Counted from the stretch's first letter, positions 5,784 to 41,317 are shown. The stretch: 64,000 nt of DNA from Bacteroidaceae bacterium (GCA_045597745.1 JAZLKQ010000528.1:2208-66207), one strand, 5' to 3'. Translations and numbers: made by a program. Notes: generated by a model not told the origin, from the sequence alone.

Positions 5784-5827
5784 CAAAAATAAATCTGCTA
5801 AAAACGGCCGTTAGTCTATCTTAGCCT
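5784..5827 (-). promoter_or_regulatory. late-promoter-like composite element #1
   Basis: Minus sense: AGGCTAAGATAGAC (5827..5814), a 22-nt spacer, then TATTTTTG (5791..5784). It lies 34 nt upstream of the ATG at 5749. Confidence 0.55.
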
Positions 5828-5834
5828 AATGAAG

Positions 5835-5842
5835 TAACTTTG
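5835..5842 (+). promoter_or_regulatory. host-type -7 promoter box for the packaging operon
   Basis: TAACTTTG is a perfect TAnnTTTG (Bacteroides -7 consensus), 19 nt before the ATG at 5862. It is divergent from late element #1. Confidence 0.55.
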
Positions 5843-5861
5843 AATAGGAGCTGTATGACAG

Positions 5862-6284
5862 ATGAAAGATACTGAACTGAAGAAACAGAGGGACAGAGAC
5901 CTCTATGCCGCTTATGTTGAAGGACTCAGGCAGCGGACGTTCGCTTCGCTGGGTGAGGCGTCAGAGTATGCGCGTAAGCAGACAGCCCCCCAATACTATA
6001 TCTCCGCAAGGACTGCATCCCTGCTGATACACAAGATACAGAACAAGGTATCGCTCATTGACGTGCATGAGAGTTCGCGCAGGCGCATCTGGCAGCTCTA
6101 TGACCGTTACCAGGAATATCTGCGTGAGAACCCCGACACCAAGGAAGCGCGTGAGATCATCCTTGAGAAGCTCGTTGAGACGCCAGCACCGGAGTTCTTC
6201 CTGTCCGGCAGCAGGGCCAAGCATATCATAATAGAGGAGCGCAGACGCAGACGTTCCGTAATGCGTAACAAAGGACACCGATGA
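5862..6284 (+). CDS. small basic HTH-like protein (small terminase or transcription factor; undecided)
   Basis: 140 aa. First gene of the operon containing TerL. RDRDLYAAYVEGL...YISARTASLLIHKI looks like a Mor/HTH-type segment, and the C-terminus is RRRRR-rich. Confidence 0.6.
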   Translation: MKDTELKKQRDRDLYAAYVEGLRQRTFASLGEASEYARKQTAPQYYISARTASLLIHKIQNKVSLIDVHESSRRRIWQLYDRYQEYLRENPDTKEAREIILEKLVETPAPEFFLSGSRAKHIIIEERRRRRSVMRNKGHR

Positions 6285-6748
6285 TAGTAATCACCTTGCT
6301 TGCAGTAATCGTCCTGCTGTGTGTGCTGCACGTCAATCCGATGCTCACACCCTGCACCTATCAGTTCTTCCATGCCAACATCTTCCACATGTTGGCAAAC
6401 GGCCTTGCGCTCTACACTATATTCAGGCCAGGGAGAAAGGACAACATACCTGTTGCTGCCCTCTCCTACCTCATATCGGTGCTTGTGTTCCCGCTCTCGC
6501 ACCTCACACCCATAGGCATAAGCAACATGCTGTACGCAGCCATAGGCATGCGCACACCGCCATTCAGCAACAGATGGTGGACGGCAGCACCGACATGGAC
6601 GTTCCATGCCGTGACCATCCTCATGCTCCTCATACCGCATTTCAGCGCCGTGTCGCACATATATTCCTATATCATGGGGATATGTGCCGCCATTGTCATC
6701 CGTTTCCTCAAAGACCTCAGTCATGAAGAAGAAAGAGCCGTTAAGTGA
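6281..6748 (+). CDS. mini rhomboid-like intramembrane serine protease
   Basis: 155 aa with about six hydrophobic segments. FHANIFHMLAN fits HxxxxHxxxN, GISNMLYAAIG aligns with the rhomboid GASGAIFGLLG, and a later SHIYSYIMG supplies the TM6 His. ATGA overlap with the upstream ORF. Confidence 0.6.
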   Translation: MIVITLLAVIVLLCVLHVNPMLTPCTYQFFHANIFHMLANGLALYTIFRPGRKDNIPVAALSYLISVLVFPLSHLTPIGISNMLYAAIGMRTPPFSNRWWTAAPTWTFHAVTILMLLIPHFSAVSHIYSYIMGICAAIVIRFLKDLSHEEERAVK

Positions 6749-8861
6749 AGAAGACCTTGCGGCCATTGAGGCCATCGTCAAGGAGAACTACAAGCGCTGG
6801 GAGCAACTGCAGTGCAACTATGACCCCATCACGGGCGAGGGCCTTGCCGAACTCCTGGAGGAGAAGCGCGTAAGGCTGCGCATCCCCGACTTTGCCACAC
6901 CTGACATCCTTGTGCCGGAAGACATGATGAAGGTCAAGCTGGTTAAGAAGATTGTCAGGGCAGGAGGAATACAGAACTTCGTTGACACCTATAAGTTCAA
7001 GAGCGACACCAAGCCGACCTTTCAGGACATTGAAGACCAGCTGCGACGTGTGCGCCACAAGTACGACTACTGCCACTGGGCATACTTCTGCATCTGGATT
7101 GATGCCAAGCTTGGCGGTCGCATCCGCTTCAAGCTCAACTACGCACAGATACAGGTGCTGAAGCTGTGTCTGCGTCTCATGCGGGCAGGGAAGCCTATCA
7201 ACATTGTCATTGACAAGGCACGTCAGTGGGGCGGCTCCACGTTCTGCATCTTCTTTCAGTTCTGGATTGCCGTACACTGGGACCACTACCACTCCTTTGC
7301 TGTGGCAGCACATGTACAGGACGCAGCGCACAACGTATTCAACATGCTGACCGATGCCCTTGCCGAATATCCTGCATGGGATCTCGGTCTGCCAAGAGGC
7401 ACGGAGCTGCATTTCGGCAATGCTGGCGGCAACAAGCATGCATGGCAGATCAAGGACAAGAACAACAAGGCCGTCATGCCGTTCAAGATATTCATCGGCT
7501 CGGCAGAACGTCCTGACTCCCTGCGTTCCGGCCGTATCAGTGGCGCACACTACTCTGAGGTTGGTGTATGGCCCAACACACCGGGCAAGTCAGCGGAAGA
7601 CCTTGTGGCAGATATCTCTGGTGGTATCCCAAAGCAGCAGAAGCTCGCCATGCAGGTCTTTGAGTCCACCGCCAAGACATCCGATGACTACTTCCATGAC
7701 CTCTGCTATGACGCAGACGCAGGAGAGAGCAACTTCACCCTGCTGTTCATCGCGTTCTTCCTCATACCGCATGACACCATGCCGATTGATGACCTGTATG
7801 AGTTCGCCACATGGCTGTGGACAAACAGGAAGAACGACACACCGAAAGATGGCTGGAAGATGCCCGGCAAATACTACTGGTGGCTATGGGAGCAGGGTGC
7901 ATCCTTGCAGTCCATACAATGGTACCGCTATGAGGAGAAGAACTTCTCCAAGCGCTCACAGATGGTCAACGAGGCACCAGCATCCATGCCGGAGTCCTTT
8001 CAGTCAGCCGGACAGAAGGTCTTTGACTTCTATGACGTGGACTACATGGCACGTCACACACGCGCACCGCTGTATGAAGGTGACCTTATCAGTGATGCAG
8101 ACAAAGGGCCGGAGGTACTCAACAATATACGTTTCATCTCCAAGGCTGGCGGCAACCTCAAGATCTGGGAAATGCCCGATGACACTCCCGTCAATGACCG
8201 CTATGTGGTGGCCGTTGATGTCGGTGGCCCTAACCCGACCAGTGACTACTCTTCCGTGCGCGTCCTTGACCGCCTCATGATGATGGAGGACTTCGGTCTT
8301 GACGGCAAGCCTAACGTGGTAGCGGAAATGCACTACCATACAGACCTTGACCTGCTGGCCTACGATGCCATGCGCCTTGCCGAATGGTACAACACCGCCC
8401 TGCTGGTCATAGAGTCAAACACCATGGAGACGCGCGACCCCAACCGCGACACTGGGCCTGACGGCTTCGAGTACATCATGGACATCATTGCTGACATCTA
8501 CGGAGCAAAGAACCTGTACGCACGTCATAACAAGGAAGAGGACATGGCTGACAAGGTGGAACACAAGTGGGGATTCCATACCAACGTCAGCACCAAGCCG
8601 AAAATCATCAACAACATGAAGGTCTGTCTGCGTGACAGACTCTGGGATGAGCCAAGCAAGATTGTCACAAATGAGCTGTCCGTATATGTTGAGGACAAGA
8701 AGAAGCTGACAGCACCGAAAGGCAAAAAGGATGATGCGCTCATGGCAACCGCCATTCTCCTTTGGATAGCCTACAAGGAGATGCCAGCACCAACATGGAA
8801 GAAGAAAGAGACATTAAAGAAAGACAGGATAGTAAGCACCAACAACGCAGCAAGCCTATAA
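6723..8861 (+). CDS. terL: terminase large subunit
   Basis: KARQWGGSTF deviant Walker A, followed by an ATPase core. The C-terminal RNaseH-like nuclease has VVAVDVGG...DYSS and ...KKDDALMATAILLW acidic motifs. The start is moved to the ATG at 6723 (MKKKEPL). Confidence 0.85.
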   Translation: MKKKEPLSEEDLAAIEAIVKENYKRWEQLQCNYDPITGEGLAELLEEKRVRLRIPDFATPDILVPEDMMKVKLVKKIVRAGGIQNFVDTYKFKSDTKPTFQDIEDQLRRVRHKYDYCHWAYFCIWIDAKLGGRIRFKLNYAQIQVLKLCLRLMRAGKPINIVIDKARQWGGSTFCIFFQFWIAVHWDHYHSFAVAAHVQDAAHNVFNMLTDALAEYPAWDLGLPRGTELHFGNAGGNKHAWQIKDKNNKAVMPFKIFIGSAERPDSLRSGRISGAHYSEVGVWPNTPGKSAEDLVADISGGIPKQQKLAMQVFESTAKTSDDYFHDLCYDADAGESNFTLLFIAFFLIPHDTMPIDDLYEFATWLWTNRKNDTPKDGWKMPGKYYWWLWEQGASLQSIQWYRYEEKNFSKRSQMVNEAPASMPESFQSAGQKVFDFYDVDYMARHTRAPLYEGDLISDADKGPEVLNNIRFISKAGGNLKIWEMPDDTPVNDRYVVAVDVGGPNPTSDYSSVRVLDRLMMMEDFGLDGKPNVVAEMHYHTDLDLLAYDAMRLAEWYNTALLVIESNTMETRDPNRDTGPDGFEYIMDIIADIYGAKNLYARHNKEEDMADKVEHKWGFHTNVSTKPKIINNMKVCLRDRLWDEPSKIVTNELSVYVEDKKKLTAPKGKKDDALMATAILLWIAYKEMPAPTWKKKETLKKDRIVSTNNAASL

Positions 8862-8863
8862 CT

Positions 8864-9244
8864 ATGAACAAGATTATTGCATTTTTCAAGAAGTTGAGAC
8901 TGAAGATTGCCCGCATTATAGTCATCGCCTGGGCAAAGTTGAACTACCGCATAGCCGTTGACAAAGCCAACAAACGCTATGAAGAGGAACGCACCATGAT
9001 ATATGTTGTCGCGCAGCCGTTCCAGCCGGACGTACTCACTACCTATGACCACAGACGTTTCAAGGCAGAGAAGGCCGCATGGGGCAGACAGTACGCAGCA
9101 TTCCTCACGCTGGCAGGCATGAAAGCCGGATGCTACTATCACACTCCAGACAGAGCTGGCAACCAGGCCATGACACCGGAAGAGATAGAGAAGCGCAAGG
9201 CATACTTCATCCGCGAAAGACTCTACAAAGCAAAACTATTATAA
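8864..9244 (+). CDS. hypothetical protein
   Basis: The ATG at 8864 lies 2 nt after the TerL stop (MNKIIAFFKK...). 126 aa and basic. Confidence 0.55.
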   Translation: MNKIIAFFKKLRLKIARIIVIAWAKLNYRIAVDKANKRYEEERTMIYVVAQPFQPDVLTTYDHRRFKAEKAAWGRQYAAFLTLAGMKAGCYYHTPDRAGNQAMTPEEIEKRKAYFIRERLYKAKLL

Positions 9245-9249
9245 AGCAG

Positions 9250-9286
9250 AAAGCCCTCGTTTCACAACGGGGGCTTTCCTTTTACA
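9250..9286 (+). terminator. intrinsic terminator of the packaging operon
   Basis: AAAGCCCUCG-loop-CGGGGGCUUU (10-bp stem with one U.G, plus-strand specific) followed by a T-rich tail. It sits between convergent genes. Confidence 0.65.
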
Positions 9287-9324
9287 ACTAAATAACTAAT
9301 AACTCAAATATGAAAAAACATTGA

Positions 9325-11304
9325 TCACACTATCGGTTGCTGTCCGGGCTGCGGCCTGATGCCCTGCGGCACCACAGCCTGCTGCTGTTCCGGTGTTGCG
9401 CCAGCACTCTTCATTTCTGCCTGACGTGCCTCACGTCTCTGCTTCAGCTTCTCAATCCACGGACGCTTGCTTATCTCTGTGTAGTCATCCATGCTAATCA
9501 GACCATTGATGAGGAACTCCTTGGCATCTGCCTCGGCAATCTCACGGTAAACAGGTGTCTCTGTTGACTCCTTCACGCGCAGGTCATATGTTATGTTGCG
9601 AATCTCATTCAGCTTGAGGTTCTGGTTGTCGAATACTCCGTCAATCTCACCGCATATCTGCTGCCACCTTTCCTCATCATAGAAGGTCACAAGGTTCTTC
9701 ATCTTCTTGATGTGTATCTCCTCAATGAAGTTGTGCAGCTTCTTCAGGAACGCGGCAATGGACGTAGTAGAGTTGTTCGCCATCTGCTGGTAGAGTGCGC
9801 CCGATGCTCCGGCAAACGGTGTCTTGCCCTGCAATGCGTCCGTGATGGCTGTTGACTTGTCACCCATGCGTGAGAACGTGTCAAGGTACTTGGCCACGTC
9901 AAACGTCTGTGCATTGCCGTAGAACACCTTCGGCATCATATTCTCCATGCCCGGCTTCATATCAATGAACACCATGTCATCAATACTTGTCCATGCGTTC
10001 GCAAACTCATGCGGATCCATGTTACCCAGAATCTGCTTCGGCACTACCACAACACCCTTGGCATTGGTTCTGATGAGCCAGTCATTGAGGATGATTGCGC
10101 GGTTCATGATGATGTTGTGGTCAATCTCCGGATACAGATAGCCTTGTATCTTGCCGTCCATCATAGGTACTGCGCGAACGGTGAACGGATGTGACCTGTC
10201 AGGCAGCGGTGACTCGCCTTCCCACAGGATAGTGCCATCGGGAGCCAGGAAGCGGCAATACCAGAACTCATCAATGAAGAAGCCATCATCACCGAACTCC
10301 GTGCCGTCACCTTCTATGTATGGTATCTCCTCCTCTGTCCATCCCTGAGCAAGACCCTTCTCGCGTCTTCTCACGTTCTCCTGACGGATATACTCGCGAT
10401 ACTGGAAGTCATCGGCATCAATAATCTCCTCCGTGGCATCATTCCAGTCATGCAGCTTGATACGCGCCTTAGTCTCTTTTGTCCATGCCTCCAGCACCAT
10501 GCAGACCGTAGGGTCAGGGTCTTCCATGAACGTCAGCACGGACTCCTTGAAGCGGTCCGTAGGGTTGATGATAGCCTTCGCCTTGAACAGCTCTGACTGC
10601 TGAGAATAGATGTCGCACAGGATAGCATAGTCTGTTGCGTTACGCGCAAACTTGGCCGCTACCTTGCCGAAATCAAACTTGCACATGCGGCCAAAAGCGT
10701 TGCCGTCCCAGAAGCGTGAGTCGTCCATCTGTGTGTCGAAGATGAACATGTTAGGGTTGACGTACTGCGTCCATGAGTCATACGTCCCGTCAGGGCCACT
10801 GGTGTTGTCCCAGCTCTCATAACCTACAAGCAGACCGCCCAGACATGCCTCACGCGCCCAATCAATGTAAAGCTCATCTATCCTGTTGCGGTAGCAGTTG
10901 GACTGCACACCATTGGTAACAACCTCGCCGTACTGCTGCTCATCCTTGTCCACGGCATGACATATCGGCTCCAGCGATTCCTTGACAAGGACACCCGCCA
11001 TTGTCTCTACCTTGTTCTGTACCTGGTTTGTCTGTAGGACGGTGTTGCCTGTCTTTTGCAGGTAACGTCTCTGCGTCATCACCTCGCCATTCACCTCTAT
11101 GAGGTCACCCCACTGATCATCGTAGCCAAAGCGCACCGCCCTTGCTCGCTGCGTGCGGAACGCCTCGTTGTTCTGCCACATGTCACGGAAATACTGGAGC
11201 ATGGCAAGGTCTTTCTCCTTGCCCACAACCTTCTGTCTTGCCTTGACAGTATTCATCTTTGCAGCAGATGGTGTCTTTCGTATTAGTCTGCTCTTTGCTT
11301 GCAT
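9325..11304 (-). CDS. portal protein candidate
   Basis: 659 aa and acidic. First gene after late element #2, adjacent to the terminase operon. The call rests on size and position only. Confidence 0.55.
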   Translation of the reverse strand: MQAKSRLIRKTPSAAKMNTVKARQKVVGKEKDLAMLQYFRDMWQNNEAFRTQRARAVRFGYDDQWGDLIEVNGEVMTQRRYLQKTGNTVLQTNQVQNKVETMAGVLVKESLEPICHAVDKDEQQYGEVVTNGVQSNCYRNRIDELYIDWAREACLGGLLVGYESWDNTSGPDGTYDSWTQYVNPNMFIFDTQMDDSRFWDGNAFGRMCKFDFGKVAAKFARNATDYAILCDIYSQQSELFKAKAIINPTDRFKESVLTFMEDPDPTVCMVLEAWTKETKARIKLHDWNDATEEIIDADDFQYREYIRQENVRRREKGLAQGWTEEEIPYIEGDGTEFGDDGFFIDEFWYCRFLAPDGTILWEGESPLPDRSHPFTVRAVPMMDGKIQGYLYPEIDHNIIMNRAIILNDWLIRTNAKGVVVVPKQILGNMDPHEFANAWTSIDDMVFIDMKPGMENMMPKVFYGNAQTFDVAKYLDTFSRMGDKSTAITDALQGKTPFAGASGALYQQMANNSTTSIAAFLKKLHNFIEEIHIKKMKNLVTFYDEERWQQICGEIDGVFDNQNLKLNEIRNITYDLRVKESTETPVYREIAEADAKEFLINGLISMDDYTEISKRPWIEKLKQRREARQAEMKSAGATPEQQQAVVPQGIRPQPGQQPIV

Positions 11305-11321: not shown

Positions 11322-11365
11322 CAAAAATGCCAACACACATCGGCTATGCTGGTCTATCTTAGCCT
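11322..11365 (-). promoter_or_regulatory. late-promoter-like composite element #2
   Basis: AGGCTAAGATAGAC (11365..11352), a 22-nt spacer, then CATTTTTG (11329..11322). The TAA stop of the upstream gene lies inside the 14-mer. It lies 17 nt before the ATG at 11304. Confidence 0.55.
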
Positions 11366-11760
11366 TTAACGCTCCTCTTAGCCAGATAATACGATATGAC
11401 ACCTATGAGAGCCAGGAACATAAGCACACCGAAAATCTTGCCAATCTGCATCCACATGACCTGCCAGCCGGACAGGTCCTTCTCCACCTCTACGGTCACA
11501 ACCTCGCGTATGGTTGTGGTATCATGGACAGCCACCTCCTTGTCGCGCCACCTCTCGCGCCACTGCACGGAAGTCTTCTCAACATATACCGTGTCACCCT
11601 TCTCGCGTATAATGCTGGTGTTCTCTACATAGATGCTGTCGCGCACGGCAATGCTGTCATGCACCACCTGGATAATCACGTCCTCGCTCTTAGGCTGAGG
11701 AATGCTCCTGCATGATGCCATCATCAGAAGCAGAATAATGAAATATATTGTCTTTCTCAT
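11359..11760 (-). CDS. u-spanin-like outer-membrane lipoprotein with C-terminal TM anchor
   Basis: MRKTIYFIILLLMMASC lipobox signal, a beta-strand-rich middle and a C-terminal TM segment (IFGVLMFLALIGVISYYL). It is the last gene of the lysis cassette. Confidence 0.6.
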   Translation of the reverse strand: MRKTIYFIILLLMMASCRSIPQPKSEDVIIQVVHDSIAVRDSIYVENTSIIREKGDTVYVEKTSVQWRERWRDKEVAVHDTTTIREVVTVEVEKDLSGWQVMWMQIGKIFGVLMFLALIGVISYYLAKRSVKG

Positions 11761-11849
11761 GGTCTTGATAAATCAAATGGGGAAAACTTCACAGCCTCCC
11801 CCACTCCCAAAGTAACGTTCAATAATACAAAACAAAATGTCTAAAGTGG

Positions 11850-12212
11850 TCATCCGTAATAGTGCCATACAACACCGCGTGAGAGCTTCCGGCTTGTGTC
11901 GATGTGTATGTATGTCTTGCCTATCCCTATGCGTGTGACACCACATGCCAGGGCAGCTGTTATTATCTTGTATCTGTTGGAATCTGTGTTGCACCTGATA
12001 TCTACGGCGCGTCCTTCGGTGTGTGCGCCTGTGCCACTCCTGCCCTTTGATTTGTCATAGGCCGATGAACGGTAGGCAGAGTTGAGGACAAGCGGGATGC
12101 CTGCCTTTTCGCGTATGCGGTCCAGTGTTGCCATGAACTCTGGATCCATGTCGTCTATGCTGCATGAAGGGCTGCACTTCCTGAACTCGCTGTCATTGAA
12201 ATATCTTGCCAT
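11850..12212 (-). CDS. endolysin, peptidase M15 (zinc D-Ala-D-Ala carboxypeptidase-like) family
   Basis: NSAYRS...GAHTEGRAVDI...YIHIDT matches the H-x(n)-D ... H-x-D zinc ligand pattern of M15 peptidoglycan peptidases. 120 aa. Confidence 0.8.
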   Translation of the reverse strand: MARYFNDSEFRKCSPSCSIDDMDPEFMATLDRIREKAGIPLVLNSAYRSSAYDKSKGRSGTGAHTEGRAVDIRCNTDSNRYKIITAALACGVTRIGIGKTYIHIDTSRKLSRGVVWHYYG

Positions 12213-12214
12213 GG

Positions 12215-12556
12215 CTACTTCTTGTTGATTACCTTGTATGCTGCAAGTTCTTTCTCAAGGACTGTGACCTTCTCAGTAAGCGAGTTTATCAACGCGCCCT
12301 GCTTACTGATCAGCTCATCCTTCTCAATCATCGTCCTGTTCATCTCCAGTATGCGCTGACGCATCTCGTCAAGCAGCTTGCCCTGCTCCTCATAGAGCTT
12401 GCCCTGTGCTGCTATGCGCTCTTCCAGATACTGTGTCGATGCTTTCGCAACACCAAGGTTGGCCTCTTTCAGCTTAGGCCCGTAATACAGAATGGAACCG
12501 CCGCCACCAAGCAGCAGTCCGGCAAGAGTTGTGAGTATTGAAGTCCAGTCCATCAT
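12215..12556 (-). CDS. holin or i-spanin-like membrane protein
   Basis: 113 aa with a single N-terminal TM segment (WTSILTTLAGLLLGGGGSILYY) and then a long coiled coil. It lies directly upstream of the endolysin and is the first gene after late element #3. Confidence 0.5.
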   Translation of the reverse strand: MMDWTSILTTLAGLLLGGGGSILYYGPKLKEANLGVAKASTQYLEERIAAQGKLYEEQGKLLDEMRQRILEMNRTMIEKDELISKQGALINSLTEKVTVLEKELAAYKVINKK

Positions 12557-12573: not shown

Positions 12574-12617
12574 CAAAAATGGGAGCAATCGCTTGCTCCC
12601 ATAGTCTATCTTAGCCT
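12574..12617 (-). promoter_or_regulatory. late-promoter-like composite element #3 (spacer doubles as a terminator hairpin)
   Basis: AGGCTAAGATAGAC (12617..12604), a 22-nt spacer containing the hairpin GGGAGCAA-GCGA-TTGCTCCC, then CATTTTTG (12581..12574). The TAG stop of the 901-aa ORF lies inside the 14-mer. Confidence 0.55.
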
Positions 12618-15311
12618 GTTGGCAAATCGTGTCTCATAATCTATATCTATCCAAGACAGCCGTTCATCGGCCGTCAGCGTTCCCAGGATCACCATGCGGA
12701 ACATCTTCCATGAGCCGCCCCGCAGTGAAGACAGCACCTTCCATTCCCTTCCGTCCATTGAGCCAAGCAGGATATAACGTGCGTGTGCCTTGTCAAAGTC
12801 ACCGCGCAGACGTATGTCCTTTATCACCTTCCTTACGTCCGTCTCGCCAAGGTCAAACGCCCTTGTGTATATCACCTGCGGCAATGCCGTGCGCTCTCCT
12901 ACTGGCGGCAAGGAAAGGCTGTAAAGCTTGCAGATGTCACCCGTTCCCTCATACACAGATACCAGTGCTTCCGGGAAGCTGGCTACCACCCCCTGCACCT
13001 TGAGGCCTGTTGCCATGGTGTGCCATGTCTGCATTGCAAGGTCATACACCATCATGTGCGTAAAATTAGGCATGAAAAATATCAGCCTTGCTCCGGCATA
13101 ATCGTACAGACACTTTGAGTTTCTCAGCCATGCAGCGAACTGAATCGGCCCTGATACCGCATTCAGCACCCAGAAACATTCATGGTTCTCAAGCATGGTA
13201 CGCACTTCTCGCGTGACAATCTCCTTCTTTCCCATCATGGCATCGCTGATATTCTGCACCTGTGAGCCACTGATGATGTTGATACCCCTCTCTGTAAAGT
13301 ACACCACGGCCTGCTGTGTCGTTGTCACGTTGGATCCAGAGACAACAATGTCACGCGACACAAGAGGAGTCTCAATAGGAATGCCCACGCCGTTTGTCTT
13401 GGCAAGGTATATGCCTATTGACGTGAATACATAAAACGCATAGCTCTGAAGATGCTCCAGGTTGATTGTTGCGCTTGCCACGTCAAGCACGTCACCGGCA
13501 AACGTCAGCCTACCCTCGTTCACGAACAGGAACGGATTGGCACTCTCTGACATTAGCAGCTTGGTCTTGTCAGTGAATGTTGAAGCTGACGCCTCCAGTC
13601 TCTTCCTTATGAAACGTGCTATAGCATCAGCATTAGGCTCATCTACCACCCTGCGTATTGATCTACTCTTGGTGTTGTCCAGCAGGACGGCATCAAGACC
13701 ACCAAAATAGTATGACGTATTGAGCAGAGGATGCTCCTTCATGGTGAATGACCAATATACAGGGGTTGCCATGCTGATTATCTCTGCCTTATAGCACTTG
13801 GCGCTCGGATAGGAAAGGTATGCGTAAACATCAGTGTTTTCTGGTATTTCAATCTCCTGCGCCCTTGCACACTTGAAGCCACCCTCCTCGTTGGTGTACC
13901 ATATCACCGTGTAACGCTTTTCTTTACCGTCTGTACCTATTCTTGTTGCAGGGAAATGCGGATAAGACTCAGGGATATGTGCTGTCACTCCGGCAAGCAC
14001 AAGACGCTCTGCATACTCCATGGCCCTTGATGCTGCCGTATAGCGGTAATGGCTGTTCTCATCATCCTTAAGGCGCGTTTCCACGGACAGCATGTCCTGG
14101 CTCTTCGGCTCCAGCGTGACACCAACGGAAAGCTCTGCAAGGTCTTCAATGTCGTATGATGCCACCTTGTAGAACTCGCTCTTCTCCGTCATGAGGTCTT
14201 CCAGAGTCTTGCCCTCATAGTCAAACTCAACCTTGCATGTGCATGATGTCTCTCCCAAGCTGGTAATCTCCGTGAAGCGCTTTATCTTGCTTGCCATCGG
14301 CGGATTGTTCAGATCCTTGCTCAAGAAGATGTCAATGCCCTTGATGACGTCCTTCCACTGCTCCACGTCAACACTTGTCAGCAGCTTGGCAGTTGCTGTG
14401 TATGTGTCAGCAGGAGCATAGTAGAATACGCACAGAGTCTTCTCATTATTCTCATCGGTGTCACCGTCATTATATGTCAGCAGGAGACCAAGGTTCATCG
14501 TGCTGTTGACTCCGGCACCAAGAAGGACAGGCACTGACTGCATGATGTATGAGTCATCGTACAGACGCAGGGCATAACGGACAAAGACAGGAGCCGTGAA
14601 CTTCTTGTTCAACGTCTTCAGTTCGTACTGGTAGTTGTTGTACCCATCCCACAAAGCACCTTCAAGAGTCGCAATGTTCTGCTTTATATGCTCTGCCGTC
14701 AATGCGTTGCCTGTATTTGTCACGTCATAGGAGCCAGCAAGGACGTTGTTGTAATAATTCAGGAACCTCTTGTTGCCCTTCTCATAGGCCATGAACAGCT
14801 TGGTTGAGCCAGACCTTGCTAATGGTGCTTCCTTCGCCGTTGTCGTGAACTGCACGTCAACTTCGGGAAGGCCGTTGCCAATAGTCTTGTATGCTCCATC
14901 CTTGAACAGCAGATAGTACGAATCCTTGTCGGTCACAATGATGACGGTGTTGCCTATGGCCACCGTTGACAGAATCTTCTCCAGCACGTCAATGTCAAAC
15001 ATATAATCAAGAAGCTTATAAGTTTCTCCCTGTTTCACACATGCGCTGATATAAGACCTGTCATCTTTTGACAGGCGCACAAAATAGTTGGTATATGCAG
15101 ACGTCCGGTGTACGAAGAAATACAGACCTTCCTCATACCCGGCATACACGTCAGGCAGGCCTATCTCTTCTGTTACGTCCACCGGGGCAGGCATTGGTGC
15201 CTGTTCCCTGTGGTCTATCATCATGTTAGCGGATTCTGCCAGTCCTCCGTCCTCGTTCATCCTGTCACTTGGGACGCGCGATATTCCTCTCAGTTGAATT
15301 TGCTTTATCAT
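12606..15311 (-). CDS. large virion protein (tail/baseplate-size), hypothetical
   Basis: 901-aa ATG ORF that starts 1 nt after the stop of the giant ORF. No motif recognised. Confidence 0.6.
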   Translation of the reverse strand: MIKQIQLRGISRVPSDRMNEDGGLAESANMMIDHREQAPMPAPVDVTEEIGLPDVYAGYEEGLYFFVHRTSAYTNYFVRLSKDDRSYISACVKQGETYKLLDYMFDIDVLEKILSTVAIGNTVIIVTDKDSYYLLFKDGAYKTIGNGLPEVDVQFTTTAKEAPLARSGSTKLFMAYEKGNKRFLNYYNNVLAGSYDVTNTGNALTAEHIKQNIATLEGALWDGYNNYQYELKTLNKKFTAPVFVRYALRLYDDSYIMQSVPVLLGAGVNSTMNLGLLLTYNDGDTDENNEKTLCVFYYAPADTYTATAKLLTSVDVEQWKDVIKGIDIFLSKDLNNPPMASKIKRFTEITSLGETSCTCKVEFDYEGKTLEDLMTEKSEFYKVASYDIEDLAELSVGVTLEPKSQDMLSVETRLKDDENSHYRYTAASRAMEYAERLVLAGVTAHIPESYPHFPATRIGTDGKEKRYTVIWYTNEEGGFKCARAQEIEIPENTDVYAYLSYPSAKCYKAEIISMATPVYWSFTMKEHPLLNTSYYFGGLDAVLLDNTKSRSIRRVVDEPNADAIARFIRKRLEASASTFTDKTKLLMSESANPFLFVNEGRLTFAGDVLDVASATINLEHLQSYAFYVFTSIGIYLAKTNGVGIPIETPLVSRDIVVSGSNVTTTQQAVVYFTERGINIISGSQVQNISDAMMGKKEIVTREVRTMLENHECFWVLNAVSGPIQFAAWLRNSKCLYDYAGARLIFFMPNFTHMMVYDLAMQTWHTMATGLKVQGVVASFPEALVSVYEGTGDICKLYSLSLPPVGERTALPQVIYTRAFDLGETDVRKVIKDIRLRGDFDKAHARYILLGSMDGREWKVLSSLRGGSWKMFRMVILGTLTADERLSWIDIDYETRFANRLR

Positions 15312-29000: not shown

Positions 29001-32000
29001 ACAGCGCAAGCGAAGTGTTTGGGAACCTTTCTTTATGTGCCAGCGCACGTCTGCCAATCTCCTTTGTCCAGTCTGCGCCCTTCTCGTCAGGAAGGAATGT
29101 AGTAAATATGGTGTCTATGTATGCTATCGGCTTTCCGTCAACATCATGTGTTCTCGGCCATTCGTAGTTTCTTCTGGCAGATGTCACGGACTTGTCGATA
29201 TGCACCTCATTACCGGAAGACACGGTTACACCTTCAAGGTCTTCTGCCTCATCAAGGAACGCATCAATAGCCTTGTCTCGTTCCTCCTTGGTGCTTGTCC
29301 AGACGGCATCACCTGTAGGGAACACGGCAAGACCGAACTTGTCGGCTCTGGCTTTCTCCTTTGCTTCAAGCTCAATCTGCTTCTGTGTCTTGTATGCGAT
29401 GCTCTTTTCCAGGCAGTCAACAGCAAAGTCGTACACATGTTCAATGAGTTCCTTGTACTGCGGATATTTCTTCAGCGCAAGCGGCTTCTTTTGTCTTGTC
29501 TTTTCAAGTGCGCGTGTATCACTTTCAATGTCATCAATGTTGCGGAGCCTGCTGCCTTGATAGCATTCTGTTTTTTGAAGCAGTGACTCGATTGCATCTG
29601 TTGCGTATCTGTGCCCCTCCAGTGCAAAATGTACGATACGGTCTGCAAGACTGTTGGCATTCTTGTAAATAAAGAAGTCACCCAGCGCTGCCTTCTGCTT
29701 GTCAGACATCTTGTCTTGCTCATCCTTGTATGAATCAAAGTTCCAAGCCTTTGCAAGCCTTGCAGCCTCTTTCTTAATGCGCTCACGGAAATGCTCCCAT
29801 GTTTCTTCGTCTTCCTGCTCCTCTATACGCTGCTGTGCAAGCATGGTCTGTGCTATGGCAGCACCAGCCTCTGCATGTGCTTCCTGCTCCTTCTTGAGAT
29901 TCTGTGCTGTGGCAATGGCATCCGGCTTCTCTTTGTCGAAGTTGGTAACGTCAAACGCCAGGACGTCATTGTATGAGTCCATTTCTCCCACCATGCCAGA
30001 AGCTTCCGGAAGGTCGCGCACTGCATTGTAGAATGATTTGAGGTATGGACGCACCTCATCACCAAGGTCAGCAATCATGCTTGACGCGTAGTTCACGAAC
30101 TTTCGTGCGCCACGCTCAAGATGATAGACAGCCATTTCGGTACCGATGGCAAGAATCTCTGGATCTATGCCCATGTTCATCTGACCCGTGAGTTTCTTCT
30201 TCATGCGGGCCTTCAACTGCGCATACCTCTCATCAGTAACCAGTCTGTTGCCGGAAGGATTGTGGTTCACATCGCTGTGCTCGTTGACTACAGGAGAAAT
30301 CTGCTCTTCGGTTGCAAATGCTATCTCTTTGCCGGACTTAAGCCTGTAACCATTGTTGTCTGTTCCAGCAGGAATGTAATGGCCGACAATGGTGTATTCC
30401 TTGCCATTGAACATGACATTGGAACCCTGCGGATACTTGAATGACTCCCAGCGACTCTTTTGTGGCTCAGTTACACCTTCCTCGCTCTCGGTGTTTTCCA
30501 CAGCCTGGGCAGGAGTGTTGGCGCTTTCATCTGCCTTCTGCTCCTGCTCGCCAGTCTGTGTGTTGGTATTAGATTGTATGAGTTCTGCGAATGGTACATA
30601 GCCATCAGGCAAGTAAGACTGTCTGTCAGCCTTGCTTACTCCACAGCGAGAAAGAAGAATCTCAACCCATTCCTCGCGTTCTTCTGCGGCCTTTCTGATG
30701 TTATTTAATGATGCCTGTCTTCTGCGCTCGTTAGCTGCACCTATTGTCGTGATAGTGCTTTCCAGATCTTCGTACTTGCCGCCAGCCTCAACCTTGGTGT
30801 TGTTCTTTTTATAGACGCGGCTTGCCCAGTCCTTGTACTCCTTTGCATAGCCAGGAATGTCTGCAAGAATCTTCGCAATAGCCTCACGCACATTGCTTGA
30901 TGTCGCAAGGGCCGTTGCATACTCATTCCTGCCGTGCTTGGCTTCCTGTGCAAAACTGGCCTTCTCCTCATCAAACTTGCGCTGAACCTCATCAGTTGCA
31001 TTGCCATTAGAATCAACAAGCACGTTTCGCGGACGAAGATCCTTAACTATTAGACTTGCGAATCCATGACGCTGACGCGGTGCTGGCTTGGAACCTTCAA
31101 ACTCTGCGTCAACAACATGAATATTGCCATTAGAATCAACAAGCACGTTTCGCGGACGAAGATCCTTAACTATTAGACTTCCGTTTGCATATTCCCCTTT
31201 GCCAACCCTTGAGAAGCCAAGTTGACGCATATAATCGTCTATCTGCTCCTCTGTGCATAATTTTGCATTATTAACAAATCGCTGGCGATATACGACATAA
31301 GCAGTTCCTTCCCCAAAACTTGCAATTCCAACAAGCTCGTATGCAGATTCTGGGAATAAACTATTGAATAGGGCTACTCTTTGCAGCAAATTTGCTATGC
31401 TGCCTCCCGTATGTGACAGATTGTTTACTTTGTAGATATACCCATCTTCCGATAGGTAATTATCATTCTCATCACCAGACTCAAATGGTGTACCGAAATT
31501 GGCTGTGGAAAGTTCGTGCCAAACACCTCTTTCCTTTGCCCATTTGATTGCGGCCGCAGCCTGTTCCTGACCGCTCTTGCCTTTTACTTCTCTTTCAAGG
31601 CTGAGTGCATCTTCCTGTGACGCTCCACTTCCTCCTGGACGTTCACTGGACCTTGATTCCTCAGATACTCCATTGCCTTCTGTGAGTTCTGACGGTGATA
31701 TTCGTTGAGATACTGTGTCATCGTTTTGATTTTCTTCTGCAAAGTTATCATTATTATTTTTTCCAGCAACTTCTGCTGACTGAGTTTTGCCCTTTCTTAC
31801 AAGAGTGATATTTTTTGGGATGTTCTCGCTCCAGGTTGTGCCGTCTTCCTCAAAGTACACATTGATTGCAGGCTGTCCGTTGAAAACAGTCTCCTTGATT
31901 TTCGTGATAGTCTTTTCGCCCTTATAGCCACGGACGTTGATAACATCACCAACTGCAAGCTCGTTGCCATCCTTATCTTTTGCAACATTCTCTTGTTTAT

Positions 32001-37238: not shown

Positions 37239-38360
37239 TTACAGACCGTAAAAGGTTTTTGCTCCTGCTGTCTGGTCAACTGTCCCATCTGCACTGACTC
37301 CACTCATTCCATAAGCCGAAGAAGCCACTTTGCTGAGAAGTTCGGCAGACTTGTTTACATAAGGAAGCAGTTTATGACCCGCCTCGCTTGCAGTCATCTT
37401 GCCATTGTCAACGTCGTCGAGTATGTTTTTCACCTTTGCCATATCCGTACCGTCAAGGTCAGCCACATTACCAATGTGTGAGTATATGTTTGCATATAGC
37501 GACTCCGGCTTGATGTCCATGACTTGACGCTGACCGCCATTGGCATCACCTTCTATTGTGATTCTGATACTTGAAGATGAACCGCCACCACCTTCAACAG
37601 AAGCCTTTACCCTGCCGTTGGCAGCAGCACGTTCCATTGCCAGCGACTCATCGTAGCGATAGCCGCCAGGAGCTGATGCGTCCGGCACAAAGCCATTGGC
37701 CAGCATGGACGCATCCTTGCTTGATTTAGCCATGCTTTCCTGCTGTTCGGCACCGATACCCTGCATTGTCGCGCTCATCTGTGTCTTGTTGATGTCTGTC
37801 TGTGCGCCGTAAGCCTCCTTTGCTATGCCCAGTCTGCCGTTTGCCTGTTTGTCAGCAGCAGAGATCTTGAGCTGTGCCAGGTTGGTAGTGTTACCCTGAC
37901 GCAGTTGTGCAAGGTGCATCTGTGCCTGTGCTTGCTTATCCTTGATAGCATCAAGACGTGACTGCCTATGCTTGCGGTTTGCGTCTGCCTCTCGCATCCA
38001 GTTCTGTGTCATGCCCTGATACTGCTGATTGCTTGCACCCCTTGCCACTCCTGCAAGGTTGGCAATAGCCGTAGCCATTTCTGTAGCTGCGGCCCATGTA
38101 TTGCGCTTGGTCTCGGCATTGGTCAGGATATCATTCTCCTTTTGCGCGTTCTGCAAATCCTGATTGCGCTGATTAACGATGTTATAGAACGATGCCTCGG
38201 CCTGTTGGTTGGCATTGTTAATTACATCTATCTGCTCTTGTGTTTGCTGATTCTGCTCATCAAGAGCCTGCTGTGCTTGCTGTATGTACTGACCGGAAGC
38301 GGCTTGCTGCTGCTGTGCATACTTGTCAGCCTCATCCTGGTAATTCTTCTTTACACCCAT
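37239..38360 (-). CDS. Q/N/A-rich coiled-coil protein (internal/ejection or tape-measure-like; a guess)
   Basis: 373 aa with low-complexity QQAQQALDEQNQQTQEQ... ATGA overlap with the upstream ORF, and it ends 32 nt before the giant ORF. Confidence 0.6.
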   Translation of the reverse strand: MGVKKNYQDEADKYAQQQQAASGQYIQQAQQALDEQNQQTQEQIDVINNANQQAEASFYNIVNQRNQDLQNAQKENDILTNAETKRNTWAAATEMATAIANLAGVARGASNQQYQGMTQNWMREADANRKHRQSRLDAIKDKQAQAQMHLAQLRQGNTTNLAQLKISAADKQANGRLGIAKEAYGAQTDINKTQMSATMQGIGAEQQESMAKSSKDASMLANGFVPDASAPGGYRYDESLAMERAAANGRVKASVEGGGGSSSSIRITIEGDANGGQRQVMDIKPESLYANIYSHIGNVADLDGTDMAKVKNILDDVDNGKMTASEAGHKLLPYVNKSAELLSKVASSAYGMSGVSADGTVDQTAGAKTFYGL

Positions 38361-38944
38361 CAGTTATTCTCCTTTTGAAGTTTCAGACGTTCAATCTCTG
38401 CCTGTGCCGCCTGATCCTGACGCGCACCGATATAGTTGACACCAGCCGCAACACCCTGCCCTGCTGCCTGTGCTATTGCCGCACCCTGCTGTGCATGCAT
38501 TTGTGCCTGCTGCTGTGCAAGAGCATTGTCAGTCTGCTGATATCTCTGCTCAACACCTTCCTTGTAGCTCTCGGCATTAGCGGCTATGTTGCTTGTTGTC
38601 TCTGCCACGGAATCTGCGGCCTGCTGCTTCTGCATTGCTACCGATGCATCAGTGCCACCAGCAACAGCATTAGTTGCCCTTGCCGTCTTAAGGCCGTTCT
38701 GCAACAGCTCTCTCTGCTTGTTGATTGCAGCCTTTGAATCTGCTCTCTCGGTGTAGTCCTGATTCATGCGTATGTTGTACCATGCCTCGTTCTTTGCCCT
38801 CTGATTACTGATTAACCTGCGTGCCCTGTCATTCTCACGCTTGCTCTGTATTGCGCCATAGATAGCACTGCCAAGAGCAACAGCGCCACCAATAGCGCCA
38901 CCCTGCAAATTGCTTACTGCCTGCTTTATCAAATCCTCTGCCAT
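38360..38944 (-). CDS. Q/A-rich hypothetical virion protein
   Basis: The start is moved to the ATG at 38944 (MAEDLIKQ) because the longer start at 38983 falls inside late element #4. Gly/Ala-rich hydrophobic N-terminal stretch. Confidence 0.55.
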   Translation of the reverse strand: MAEDLIKQAVSNLQGGAIGGAVALGSAIYGAIQSKRENDRARRLISNQRAKNEAWYNIRMNQDYTERADSKAAINKQRELLQNGLKTARATNAVAGGTDASVAMQKQQAADSVAETTSNIAANAESYKEGVEQRYQQTDNALAQQQAQMHAQQGAAIAQAAGQGVAAGVNYIGARQDQAAQAEIERLKLQKENN

Positions 38945-38965
38945 GATGATATTTCCTTGTGGCTG

Positions 38966-39009
38966 CGAAATAAATGCAGGCATCTTTCTCTGTTGGTCTA
39001 TCTTAGCCT
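38966..39009 (-). promoter_or_regulatory. late-promoter-like composite element #4
   Basis: AGGCTAAGATAGAC (39009..38996), a 22-nt spacer, then TTATTTCG (38973..38966). It lies 21 nt before the ATG at 38944. Confidence 0.5.
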
Positions 39010-39089
39010 TACGCAGGTCATGTTATTCTGGTGTTATCCTGTGTTATTATTACATAGGTGATGCACACTTAACACAGCAAGTAGAAAAT

Positions 39090-39166
39090 TATCTATTGGT
39101 ACACATTTTCAAGTGGTGGTCTCGGATTTTCTCGGGAAAACACTTTAGCACCTGTATCTATTGGTA
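39090..39166. repeat. two copies of TATCTATTGGTA in a 320-bp non-coding region
   Basis: Perfect 12-mers at 39090..39101 and 39155..39166. GGCGAATAA also occurs twice nearby (about 39182-39199). Confidence 0.8.
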
Positions 39167-39215
39167 GAATTTTACTGAAAAGGCGAATAAAAGGGCGAAT
39201 AAGCACACACGCGCA

Positions 39216-39250
39216 CATAAAAGCAATGCCCACCCTCACGGGCAGGCATT
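39216..39250 (-). terminator. intrinsic terminator after the connector-gene operon
   Basis: Minus sense: AAUGCCUGCCC-GUGA-GGGUGGGCAUU (11-bp stem with two wobble pairs, minus-strand specific) followed by GCTTTTATG. Confidence 0.6.
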
Positions 39251-39301
39251 ACCAACGAATTTAAAAACATAAAACTTATATGACTATTTCACAGTATCAG
39301 A

Positions 39302-39607
39302 TTATCCTTCTTCTGATAGGGCATCAAGTTCCTCCTTGAAGCCCTTATGCTCTATATCAGCCTTAACCTCAACAGAAGCCAGCTTAGGCAAGACGTAAGG
39401 CACCAGGTCTTTCATTATCCTTGCTCTTTCTGCCGGATCCATGTCTTTGAGGTCTTCTGCAAGGGAGAACTCCGCTCCCTCACCTCCGTTTATGTACCCC
39501 TCAACCACAGGCGCAAGTATGTTGCGCATCTCCCTTGTGGTCTTGTTAGGTGTGTTTGGTTTGCGCCCAGCACCTGCCGGACGTTTGTCTCCTTTCTTGA
39601 ATGGCAT
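39302..39607 (-). CDS. small basic-N-terminus protein (DUF5681/small-terminase-like N-terminus; uncertain)
   Basis: 101 aa. MPFKKGDKRPAGAGRKPNTPNKTT is followed by an acidic helical tail. 1-nt overlap with the upstream ORF. Confidence 0.55.
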   Translation of the reverse strand: MPFKKGDKRPAGAGRKPNTPNKTTREMRNILAPVVEGYINGGEGAEFSLAEDLKDMDPAERARIMKDLVPYVLPKLASVEVKADIEHKGFKEELDALSEEG

Positions 39608-40146
39608 CAGAAATATCTCTTTTTAGGGCCAAAAGGCTGCATAGGCCTCTTGACCACGTTGGTTGAACGTAAGTTGTTTGTTATCTCATTCTCCAGGTCC
39701 TTGAGCTGCTTTTCGTACTCGCGGCTCTGCTGCATGCCCATGCCGGCCCCGTACCAGTCAAACAGCGCACCATACACCAGGTATCTGTGTATGTATGTGG
39801 CAACAGCCTTAAGCAGCGCATCCTTGAAGGTTGCATCAAGTATGAACTTGTATATTATCTTGCCGTCCAGAACCTGCTCGTTCCCGGCAACGTGTATCTC
39901 TACGTCATCGGCCAGGGCAAACGAAAGGAGTTGGCGCAGCTTTGCATCACGGAACTCTATGTTGCGCGAAAGAATGTGACCGTCCAGATCCTCCGTAGAA
40001 TCACTTGACATCGCATTCTCTACTTTCGGCTGTGGGACACTTGATGCTTCCGCAAACTTGTACGTCAAAGCGTCAATATCCTTATATAGCTCATCCTTTA
40101 TGATGCAAATTACGCGCTCCTTCTTTTCTTCTGTATCGTATATCAT
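39607..40146 (-). CDS. hypothetical head-tail connector-size protein
   Basis: 179-aa ATG ORF with a 4-nt overlap with the upstream ORF, in the late operon. Confidence 0.6.
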   Translation of the reverse strand: MIYDTEEKKERVICIIKDELYKDIDALTYKFAEASSVPQPKVENAMSSDSTEDLDGHILSRNIEFRDAKLRQLLSFALADDVEIHVAGNEQVLDGKIIYKFILDATFKDALLKAVATYIHRYLVYGALFDWYGAGMGMQQSREYEKQLKDLENEITNNLRSTNVVKRPMQPFGPKKRYF

Positions 40147-40616
40147 ACCTGTGGCGGCTCCTTGGTGTATATCAGTTCATCTATCTCATTGCCTATCTCT
40201 ATTGCCCGTAGGCTCCTGTTCTTGCTCATTTCTCCCTGCCCCACGTTAGCGTAGTGACGTGTCAGTATCAGGTTAACCAGAAACTCCTGCATCTTGTCGC
40301 ACAGAGACACGACCTTGTTTGCTGCACGTCTCTCTGACATCTGAAGCTGGAACACGATACTCTCCGGCATCGCCACCATAAGGTTGTCGGCAGTCGCTGG
40401 CACCGCGTCAATCACCACCGCACGTTTCAGCACGCGATGCATGACGCGCTTGAGGCTTCCCACGGCATACGTCAGTTCACGGTATATCTCTTCCCGGTTG
40501 TTAGTGCCTACCTCGGCAGAATAGCGCACGTCAGGATCCTGTATGCCTGCTGCCTCCTGACGGCTCAGCCTCTCCAGCTCGCGGAAGATTTTATCTGTGT
40601 ATAGTGTTATCTCCAT
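40143..40616 (-). CDS. hypothetical head-tail connector-size protein
   Basis: The ORF-track start at 40628 is a GTG. The ATG at 40616 (MEITLYTD) lies 1 nt after the upstream stop. Confidence 0.6.
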   Translation of the reverse strand: MEITLYTDKIFRELERLSRQEAAGIQDPDVRYSAEVGTNNREEIYRELTYAVGSLKRVMHRVLKRAVVIDAVPATADNLMVAMPESIVFQLQMSERRAANKVVSLCDKMQEFLVNLILTRHYANVGQGEMSKNRSLRAIEIGNEIDELIYTKEPPQV

Positions 40617-40617
40617 A

Positions 40618-41268
40618 TCACAACTCACTTGTTATTGTCCTGCGTGTAAGCAGCAGATTCTTTGCCTTGGCAAGCAAGGCCGTACTCTTGTCTGCATACT
40701 CCTGCACCTTGGCTTCGTACTTCTCCGCACACCAGTATGCTACCACGCTCATGATTATGTAGTCATCAATGACTGGCTTTGCCATGGCCTCCGTCCCCTT
40801 GTCCAGGTCTGGAAGGTAAAGACCGAATCCGTCACGATACAGGTCAAACGGACGTTCCGGTCCGGCACCTGTATAGGTCAGGACTATGTCGGTGTCTCCG
40901 ATATGCAGATGATATATAGGGTCTGCCTTTGGCGGCTGTACGATATACAGCTCACCACCGGACAAAGTACCGTCCGCATTGAGAACCTTGCTTCCCTGGG
41001 CAGGATTAGGCGACGTTGTGAAATACTGCCTGTTGTTATCTCCCTGCCATCTGTACCACAGCAGAGGAGTGACATACCGCGCCATGGACATGACGAAAGT
41101 GCTGACGGCATTGTCCACCATCAGCTGCAATGTTTCCTTGTCCCTTGACGTGATTGCTATGCCGTCATACAGTAGGTTGCCGTCCTTGTCCACGGCATTA
41201 GCCGCAAGGCGTGACACCTCGCGCTTTATCCCTTCCTGTATCAGAGTATCATCGATGATATATTCCAT
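40618..41268 (-). CDS. hypothetical late protein
   Basis: The ORF-track start at 41286 is a TTG inside late element #5. The first ATG is at 41268 (MEYIIDDT), only 5 nt after the -7-like box. Confidence 0.55.
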   Translation of the reverse strand: MEYIIDDTLIQEGIKREVSRLAANAVDKDGNLLYDGIAITSRDKETLQLMVDNAVSTFVMSMARYVTPLLWYRWQGDNNRQYFTTSPNPAQGSKVLNADGTLSGGELYIVQPPKADPIYHLHIGDTDIVLTYTGAGPERPFDLYRDGFGLYLPDLDKGTEAMAKPVIDDYIIMSVVAYWCAEKYEAKVQEYADKSTALLAKAKNLLLTRRTITSEL

Positions 41269-41273
41269 GGCCG

Positions 41274-41317
41274 CGAAAATATGCAAGCCATGGAACGCTG
41301 TAAGTCTATCTTAGCCT
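41274..41317 (-). promoter_or_regulatory. late-promoter-like composite element #5
   Basis: AGGCTAAGATAGAC (41317..41304), a 22-nt spacer, then TATTTTCG (41281..41274). The integrase TAA stop (41311-41313) lies inside the 14-mer. Confidence 0.5.

Follow-up and report, generated by a model that had tools for sequence, protein, structure and literature searches.

How are the late operons of a Bacteroidales phage switched on together? Phages of this kind are abundant in the gut and rumen, and to our knowledge the timing of their late genes is essentially unknown. The question is raised by a stretch of Bacteroidaceae DNA of 64,000 nucleotides (GCA_045597745.1, JAZLKQ010000528.1:2208-66207; the whole of it is called the window below), which is a temperate, podovirus-like phage genome or prophage with a Bacteroidales host, and in which a single 14-bp sequence recurs ahead of five operons. 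In this report we consider what these 14-mers are and which protein could read them. We will argue that they are probably the upstream elements of a two-part late promoter specific to this phage family, the two parts of which stand at a rigid distance from each other.

The 14-mer reads AGGCTAAGATAGAC in the minus sense. It starts at 5814, 11352, 12604, 38996 and 41304, in all five cases as GTCTATCTTAGCCT on the plus strand, that is, without mismatches and in one orientation, and no near-copies with one or two mismatches are present anywhere in the window. The chance expectation for any one given 14-mer is about 0.0005 in 128 kb of two-strand sequence. In the minus sense, each of the five copies is separated by a non-conserved spacer of exactly 22 nt from an octamer of the -7 type, which matches TAnnTTTG at 4 to 6 of 6 positions, and an ATG is found 5 to 34 nt past this box. 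The five candidate late promoters are the following.

41274-41317, minus strand: late promoter 1, connector operon; 14-mer 41304-41317, spacer 41282-41303, box TATTTTCG at 41274-41281
38966-39009, minus strand: late promoter 2, giant-ORF (open reading frame) operon; 14-mer 38996-39009, spacer 38974-38995, box TTATTTCG at 38966-38973
12574-12617, minus strand: late promoter 3, lysis cassette; 14-mer 12604-12617, spacer 12582-12603, box CATTTTTG at 12574-12581
11322-11365, minus strand: late promoter 4, portal gene; 14-mer 11352-11365, spacer 11330-11351, box CATTTTTG at 11322-11329
5784-5827, minus strand: late promoter 5, scaffold/capsid; 14-mer 5814-5827, spacer 5792-5813, perfect box TATTTTTG at 5784-5791

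Three of the 14-mers contain the stop codon of the preceding gene, namely the TAA of the integrase gene (41311-41313, promoter 1), the TAG of ORF 12606-15311 (promoter 3) and the TAA of ORF 11359-11760 (promoter 4). Promoter 5 lies in a divergent intergenic region, so that no co-directional transcript enters it from upstream. The start codons are at 41266-41268, just 5 nt beyond the box, for promoter 1 and at 12554-12556 for promoter 3, and 38942-38944 is the likely one for the operon of promoter 2, which encodes a 194/207-aa protein, a 373-aa protein, the 7297-aa ORF and a 901-aa protein. An earlier sequence-only reading of the window had claimed these five perfect copies, their spacers and octamers, the three internal stop codons and the kinds of genes that follow (scaffold/capsid, portal, lysis, giant ORF, connector), and we find all of them as it described. 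The TAnnTTTG boxes of early genes that it listed at 5835 (+), 44156 (+), 60150 (-) and 60818 (-) also exist and have no 14-mer.

Which parts of this arrangement are constrained? Information content was computed over 54 sites with unrelated spacers, and it is high in two blocks, t-n-GG-n-W-AAGATAGAC-c (W, A/T) and (T/C)A-H-H-TT-(T/C)-G, with almost no information in the 21 columns between them. The upstream element is about 16 bp long and asymmetric, with no dyad symmetry. In the downstream box, the TT and the G are present at 54/54 sites, the A at 49/54 and a first T or C at 51/54, and the two 'nn' positions hold a G only once in 108 cells. In the host -7 consensus, TAHHTTTG (T-12, A-11, T-8, T-7, T-6, G-5), the middle bases are likewise almost never G (PMC6847099). 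The box thus matches the host consensus in its refined form, and on sequence grounds we take the downstream block to be the Bacteroidota -7 element, which would be read most simply by the host primary sigma factor (sigma-ABfr type).

When the box T is set at -12, the upstream element extends from about -49 to -34, with its centre at about -41.5, these positions being counted from the box and not from a mapped start. As far as such a count goes, this is where a class II activator would bind, or a substitute for the contacts of sigma region 4. Most sites lack a -33 TTTG, which would be expected about 19 to 21 nt before the box; a TTTG occurs solely in certain lysis-type spacers, which open with it, 18 nt before the box. 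The 14-mer had been proposed earlier to replace the -33 element; the regular TTTG is missing, and the element abuts the -33 position and does not lie on it. The start codons, 4 to 35 nt past the box, are compatible with transcripts that would start a few nucleotides downstream of it. The shortest distances are those of the connector operon, where only 4 to 5 nt separate the -7 box from the first gene, both in the window and in the related loci L052, L083 and L051, and where the N-terminus of this gene's product, M-x-Y-Y/I-I-D, is conserved; this suggests that the mRNA is leaderless or nearly so.

The invariant 22-nt distance, together with the free spacer sequence, points to a protein bound to the upstream block that has to contact RNA polymerase in a single geometry. 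It would be an activator of class II type, a replacement for sigma region 4, or a sigma-like reader. The last option amounts to a different explanation of the whole promoter, in which a phage-encoded sigma-like factor (compare phiEco32 gp36 and T4 gp55) reads both halves, instead of the host sigma factor together with an activator. A single sigma factor reads promoters of just this kind, with two elements at a rigid, invariant spacing, and the capsid protein is of the SU10 type; phiEco32-like relatives of SU10 encode a sigma factor (PMC8948821). Yet no Sigma70_r2, r4 or other sigma match was obtained for any window protein scanned, the box fits the host consensus down to the rule against G at the nn positions, and an upstream element of 14 to 16 bp is long for a contact of the -35 type. 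We consider a phage sigma factor unlikely.

We next ask how far the arrangement extends beyond the window. The exact 14-mer is rare, and the family motif is common in relatives. These are prophages in metagenome-assembled genomes of rumen Bacteroidaceae and Cryptobacteroides, together with IMG/VR contigs of 45 to 72 kb; more distant relatives, found via the large terminase protein (TerL), are the cultured temperate Bacteroides phages BF1-TP2, BS-TP4 and BKO1-TP3 (PMC12694917). The first relatives, reached via the portal protein, have the motif variants AGGCCAAGATAGAC, GGGCTAAGATAGAC or GGGTAAAGATAGGC before lysis, portal and scaffold genes, followed by 22 nt and then CATTTTTG, TACTTTTG or TACATTTG. 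A relaxed pattern, GGNNAAGATAGAC-N22-YANNTTYG, in which two positions are loosened, yielded numerous IMG/VR contigs, each of them with 3 to 5 sites. Protein homology places these contigs in one family, with identities of 50 to 59% for the capsid protein, 43 to 54% for the portal, 48 to 52% for TerL and 39 to 58% for a 140-aa protein that is discussed below. Other searches yielded less: Megablast with 12 kb and tblastn with the capsid protein gave no matches to cultured phages, an IMG/VR query with the 373-aa protein found no relatives, and an IMG/VR search with the exact motif plus the octamer of the sequence-only reading gave no matches, that definition of the octamer being too strict. Of the 34 stretches found by a pattern scan of metagenomes, only 5 are relatives; by a rough chance estimate the others are most likely random matches. 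Look-ups for proteins identical to window proteins came back empty.

A census free of any condition on the box was made with the upstream core GGnnAAGA(T/C)AG(A/G)(C/A) alone in 35 related contigs (631 kb). Among its 85 distinct sites, 83 have a match of at least 4/6 to TA..TTTG exactly 22 nt downstream, a quality expected in about 5% of random octamers. One further site has the perfect box TAACTTTG at 23 nt, and one, on the opposite strand, has no box; the other 84 point in the late-gene sense and stand ahead of late genes. The genes downstream of the sites are distributed as follows.

Scaffold gene, the most widely conserved site: 27 distinct sites
Portal gene: 16 distinct sites
Connector gene: 10 distinct sites
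Lysis gene: 7 distinct sites
207-aa ORF (38360-38983 in the window, operon leader before the giant ORF): 6 distinct sites
901-aa protein gene: 1 distinct site
No assigned homologue, several of lysis type: 17 distinct sites

Relatives with protein identities of only 30 to 55% have counterparts of all five window positions, ahead of the homologous genes. The site of promoter 1 is found before the same gene in L051, L052, L060, L064, L067, L070, L083, L094 and L102, and that of promoter 2 in L051, L052, L060, L083 and L102. The scaffold site of promoter 5 reaches furthest, to the more distant cultured phage BS-TP4 and its relatives L110 and L112, which keep the architecture as GTAAAAAGATA(A/T)AC-N22-TATTTTTG. 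With such conservation at homologous sites, neither chance nor a mobile repeat can be the origin of the 14-mers. The sequence-only reading, which had proposed a phage-specific late promoter and had asked whether the motif recurs at homologous positions in related phages, is supported here: it does recur, with the same 22-nt spacing and a free spacer, out to the cultured Bacteroides phages.

The rigid distance bears on a second explanation as well, namely that the 14-mers are dispersed asymmetric repressor operators, which would silence the late operons in the lysogen or prevent read-through. Asymmetric dispersed repressor sites are known from the stoperators of mycobacteriophage L5 and the C1 operators of phage P1, and the present sites resemble these in being many, identical, scattered and asymmetric; their single orientation relative to transcription, their location at operon boundaries with stop-codon overlaps, and the temperate nature of the phage would all suit such a role. 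However, a repressor that acts by obstruction only needs no fixed geometry, so that the 22 nt kept at 83/84 sites speak for contact with the polymerase, and the element lies upstream of the core promoter, not over it. The likeness to L5 and P1 also breaks down in that the distance to the -7 box is fixed, the early promoter lacks the element, and the CI-type repressor has a palindromic operator of its own. The early promoter at 44156 (+) has the canonical layout TTTG-N19-TATCTTTG, unlike the late promoters, and its spacer contains a perfect 18-bp palindrome, GTAACTTACGTAAGTTAC (44136-44153), which is unique in the window and is the evident immunity operator. The switch as a whole (44136-44163, plus strand) lies between the CI-like gene (43726-44115, minus strand) and a Cro-like gene (44220-44474, plus strand). 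We therefore reject the 14-mer as CI operator, the operator being this different sequence, and regard dispersed repressor sites in general as quite improbable.

One of the five promoters contains an additional signal within its spacer.

12579-12602, minus strand: GC-rich hairpin in the spacer of promoter 3, -16.3 kcal/mol, supported by covariation

The 3' arm of this hairpin reaches into the opening bases of the box, and a T run comes next. About 20 lysis-cassette promoters, that of the window included, have such a GC hairpin in the 22-nt spacer, with a tetraloop and a stem of 8 to 10 bp (-13 to -19 kcal/mol). Across 15 homologous promoters, 98.3% of the cells are paired, with two-sided changes at 6/8 pairs, compared to 51 to 62% in controls where the 3' partners were slid by 1 to 3 columns. 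The hairpin is confined to lysis-type sites. It reads as an intrinsic terminator of the upstream giant-ORF operon that overlaps the lysis promoter. Its 3' arm ends in the first base or bases of the box, which explains why the lysis boxes begin with C, and its T run would double as the -7 box of the lysis promoter. Transcription of the giant-ORF operon would then stop just where transcription of the lysis genes restarts, and with the terminator inside the spacer the lysis genes would be insulated from read-through and dependent on their own promoter. Such a terminator in a promoter spacer would be a neat case of signal overlap in a compact genome.

This hairpin could also be taken to mean that the element works on the RNA and marks the 3' ends of the upstream operons for processing, termination or antitermination. 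It follows the element at the lysis site, and in the three cases with an internal stop codon the element forms the last part of the transcribed preceding gene. On the other hand, the most conserved copy, that of the scaffold, stands between divergent genes where no co-directional transcript arrives from upstream, the hairpin is restricted to the lysis-type sites, and nothing at the RNA level explains why the distance to a host-type -7 box is fixed. An RNA signal is accordingly very improbable in our judgement.

We have also considered that the conserved sequence is itself a -7 box on the opposite strand, driving antisense transcripts or, at 5814, those of the terminase operon. Its reverse complement does contain TATCTTAG, and in L009 and L012 it has TATCTTTG, the same sequence as the early-promoter box at 44156. 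Conservation runs counter to what such a box requires: the 'nn' bases (TC) and the flanks, which should be free, are invariant, while the T7 (A/T/G) and G8 (G/A) positions, which should be fixed, vary. Moreover, transcripts from four of the five copies would run into the upstream genes from their 3' ends. This option is rejected on the conservation pattern, and we attach almost no probability to it.

It should be pointed out that several observations weigh against the two-part late promoter as we describe it. The -33 element is weakly conserved even in the host promoters of Bacteroidota (PMC6847099), which means that its lack at our sites does not prove dependence on an activator. Many of the related sites belong to a small number of clades and do not count as wholly independent. 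Phages of different host genera share the core AAGATA-AC, and a conserved host factor as its reader would fit this as well. Finally, the element does not define the whole late programme. The claim in the sequence-only reading that the motif stands in front of every late operon holds for the five listed above, but there is no copy at the terminase operon (5862-9244, plus strand), at the genes after the capsid terminator (below 3197) or in the minus-strand block 57796-63927.

We now consider which protein could read the element. The leading candidate, as yet unproven, is encoded next to the scaffold promoter on the other strand.

5862-6284, plus strand: 140-aa basic protein, a tandem repeat of a three-helix unit; leading candidate reader
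5835-5842, plus strand: host-type -7 box TAACTTTG of the divergent terminase operon

In every relative examined, the gene of the 140-aa protein is the first of the divergent operon (140-aa protein, rhomboid-like protein, TerL) beside the scaffold promoter, and homologues are present in the cultured phages (BS-TP4 gp9, BF1-TP2 gp58). The family is an orphan with more than 522 clusters, all unnamed; it has no Pfam match, a scan of 25 members gave no consistent weak match, and the PDB holds no sequence match to the 140-aa protein. The protein has 30 K+R against 20 D+E. Its AlphaFold model (predicted local distance difference test, pLDDT, 94.8) consists of two repeats of the three-helix unit. A fold search with the whole model gave no significant neighbour, and with the half-domain the top matches are mostly winged-helix domains, none of them significant (all E > 2). 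The lack of dyad symmetry in the element suggests a reader that is a monomer or has tandem domains, and a tandem-domain monomer would suit an asymmetric site of 14 to 16 bp. In addition, the operon of the 140-aa protein is the sole morphogenesis operon without the element, as expected if an activator must come first. That this protein is the late-gene activator that reads the element is for us a tentative possibility; it could equally be the small terminase subunit (TerS), which its first place in the TerL operon fits. Covariation of the motif variants with the helices of the protein follows phylogeny and is not decisive.

The 14-mer at 5814 covers about -33 to -20 of the opposing terminase promoter, so the two divergent promoters overlap in the window. 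In relatives the distance between terminase box and motif ranges from 8 to 74 nt; a universal autoregulatory overlap is rejected for this reason, the overlap being specific to the clade of the window. As to other regulators, Pfam and PHROG scans of about 60 window proteins, with some short ORFs outside the scan, found no member of the sigma, Mor/C, Ogr, lambda Q, RinA/ArpU or MotA/AsiA families. The sequence-only reading had named three helix-turn-helix (HTH) ORFs as candidate factors. One of them is the 140-aa protein, which is conserved together with the motif, with the reservation about the small terminase subunit just made; the other two, 49397-50170 and 60232-60597, have neither family matches nor homologues in the related loci compared. 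Another candidate regulator, a conserved protein of 135 to 178 aa whose gene immediately precedes the late region in some relatives, was rejected, as it has no homologue in the window.

Taken as a two-part late promoter, the system would operate in the following way. A factor made only in lytic growth, either encoded or modified by the phage, would bind the element on one face of the helix and contact RNA polymerase like a class II activator, or stand in for sigma region 4, while the host sigma factor would read the -7 box. It would in this manner switch on the connector, internal/giant protein, lysis, portal and scaffold/capsid operons together. Should the 140-aa protein be the activator, each of its two winged-helix-like repeats is predicted to recognise one half of the asymmetric 16-bp element at -41.5, and in the clade of the window the bound protein would shut off its own divergent promoter. 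In that event, the 140-aa family would represent a novel class of factor for the RNA polymerase of Bacteroidota, namely monomers that activate late genes or appropriate the sigma factor. The late switch would then be defined for a large family of temperate Bacteroidales phages from gut and rumen that has not been described before and that includes cultured Bacteroides phages.

It is instructive to compare this scheme with known systems. The four dispersed late promoters of phage Mu (lys, I, P and mom) are activated by protein C, whose site lies over the -35 region (PMC4461284). The likeness consists in a temperate phage with several dispersed late promoters, which in Mu are served by one phage activator at the -35 region and the host sigma factor downstream; in the window, however, the scans show no Mor/C-family protein, the element is asymmetric, the sigma factor would be that of Bacteroidota with its -7 box, and the distance is a rigid 22 nt. 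At the middle promoters of T4, MotA and AsiA redirect the polymerase to a new upstream motif, and the host -10-type element is kept (PMC6070864). Here, too, a host downstream box is kept and a new upstream motif is added. The MotA box is centred near -30, whereas our element spans -49 to -34, and no homologues of MotA or AsiA appear in the scans. By this comparison, the system would work like Mu C and the T4 middle promoters and yet is not a member of either family, given the absence of their regulators from the scans, the asymmetric site and the Bacteroidota-type host sigma factor.

Class II promoters such as those of CAP and FNR, with a site near -41.5, agree with the inferred centre of the element and with its strict helical phasing (22 nt at 83/84 sites), but activators of that type are dimers on palindromes, and the site here has no dyad. 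The housekeeping promoter of Bacteroidota (-33 TTTG, -7 TAnnTTTG, sigma-ABfr) shares the -7 box, including its TAHHTTTG refinement, and differs in the -33 TTTG, which is missing at most of our sites, and in the long conserved element just upstream of that place. In Gram-positive phages, the small activators RinA, ArpU and LtrC are encoded just upstream of the terminase and control packaging, morphogenesis and lysis genes. The gene of the 140-aa protein holds the same position, although sequence or Pfam similarity to these proteins is absent and the terminase operon here lacks the element. Full-text literature searches returned no earlier description of the motif or of any late promoter in Bacteroides phages.

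A promoter so sharply defined and widely conserved offers a means to annotate the late regulons of this phage family. The element is also a concrete DNA bait for finding the regulator, with the 140-aa orphan as candidate protein, and the promoters could potentially serve as tight phage-inducible parts and as prophage-induction reporters for Bacteroides engineering. The cultured relatives BS-TP4, BF1-TP2 and BKO1-TP3 make the system experimentally accessible (PMC12694917).

The other features of the window that surround the promoters are listed below.

Mid-genome, 41311-42390, minus strand: integrase gene, immediately upstream of late promoter 1
After the integrase and before the giant ORF, minus strand: small structural genes
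15313-37206, minus strand: 7297-aa giant ORF
Same operon as the giant ORF, minus strand: 901-aa protein gene
11359-12556, minus strand: lysis cassette, including the endolysin gene 11850-12212
9325-11304, minus strand: P22-type portal gene (phrog_156)
4982-5749, minus strand: scaffold-like gene, preceding the capsid gene
3254-4960, minus strand: SU10-type capsid protein gene
5862-9244, plus strand: four-gene operon between the portal and scaffold genes (140-aa protein, rhomboid-like membrane protein, 725-aa large terminase, small protein)
43726-44115, minus strand: CI-like HTH_3 repressor gene, first in the long minus-strand block
From about 44220, plus strand: early operon with RecT, nuclease/FtsK-like and replication-type genes

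The integrase gene lies directly upstream of late promoter 1 also in L064, L070 and L080. In the L001/L011 relative it is elsewhere (1421-2497 in L011) and in the opposite orientation, which indicates that the lysogeny module has moved within the phage family. The DUF1064 gene, part of the early operon in the window (52244-52651, plus strand), is likewise found at another place in L070, L083 and L102, between the connector operon and the giant-ORF promoter. The giant ORF holds an internal tandem duplication of 123 bp near 31000-31161, and comparable giant ORFs occur in relatives, with a coding sequence of 16.2 kb in BS-TP4 and 3633 aa in BF1-TP2. The gene of the rhomboid-like membrane protein (6281-6748, plus strand), an odd member for a packaging operon, stands between the 140-aa gene and TerL at the same place in all relatives examined. 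In the GenBank records of the cultured Bacteroides phages (PQ571263.1, PQ571277.1 and PQ571269.1; L108, L109), the large terminase homologue bears the name 'tail spike protein', although it matches the terminase large subunits of Stx-converting, Vibrio and Roseobacter phages.

A reverse transcriptase gene (62542-63927, minus strand; phrog_1423, RVT_1) resembles those of diversity-generating retroelements, and no template/variable repeat (TR/VR) pair for it was found within the window. Terminator-like GC hairpins with a T run are present after the capsid gene (3197-3231), between the convergent portal and terminase operons (9243-9277), within the lysis cassette (11770-11802), after the connector operon (39217-39250) and ahead of the TAACTTTG box at 60150 (60163-60196). 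The gene of a DUF7666 protein contains three to four tandem coding repeats of 27 bp (AKIGSSGD-x; 53794-53880, plus strand), in which the promoter-core-like sequence AAGATAGGC was rejected as a chance likeness within coding repeats. Eight tandem repeats of 27 bp are also found at the left end of BF1-TP2 (L108, 121-417).

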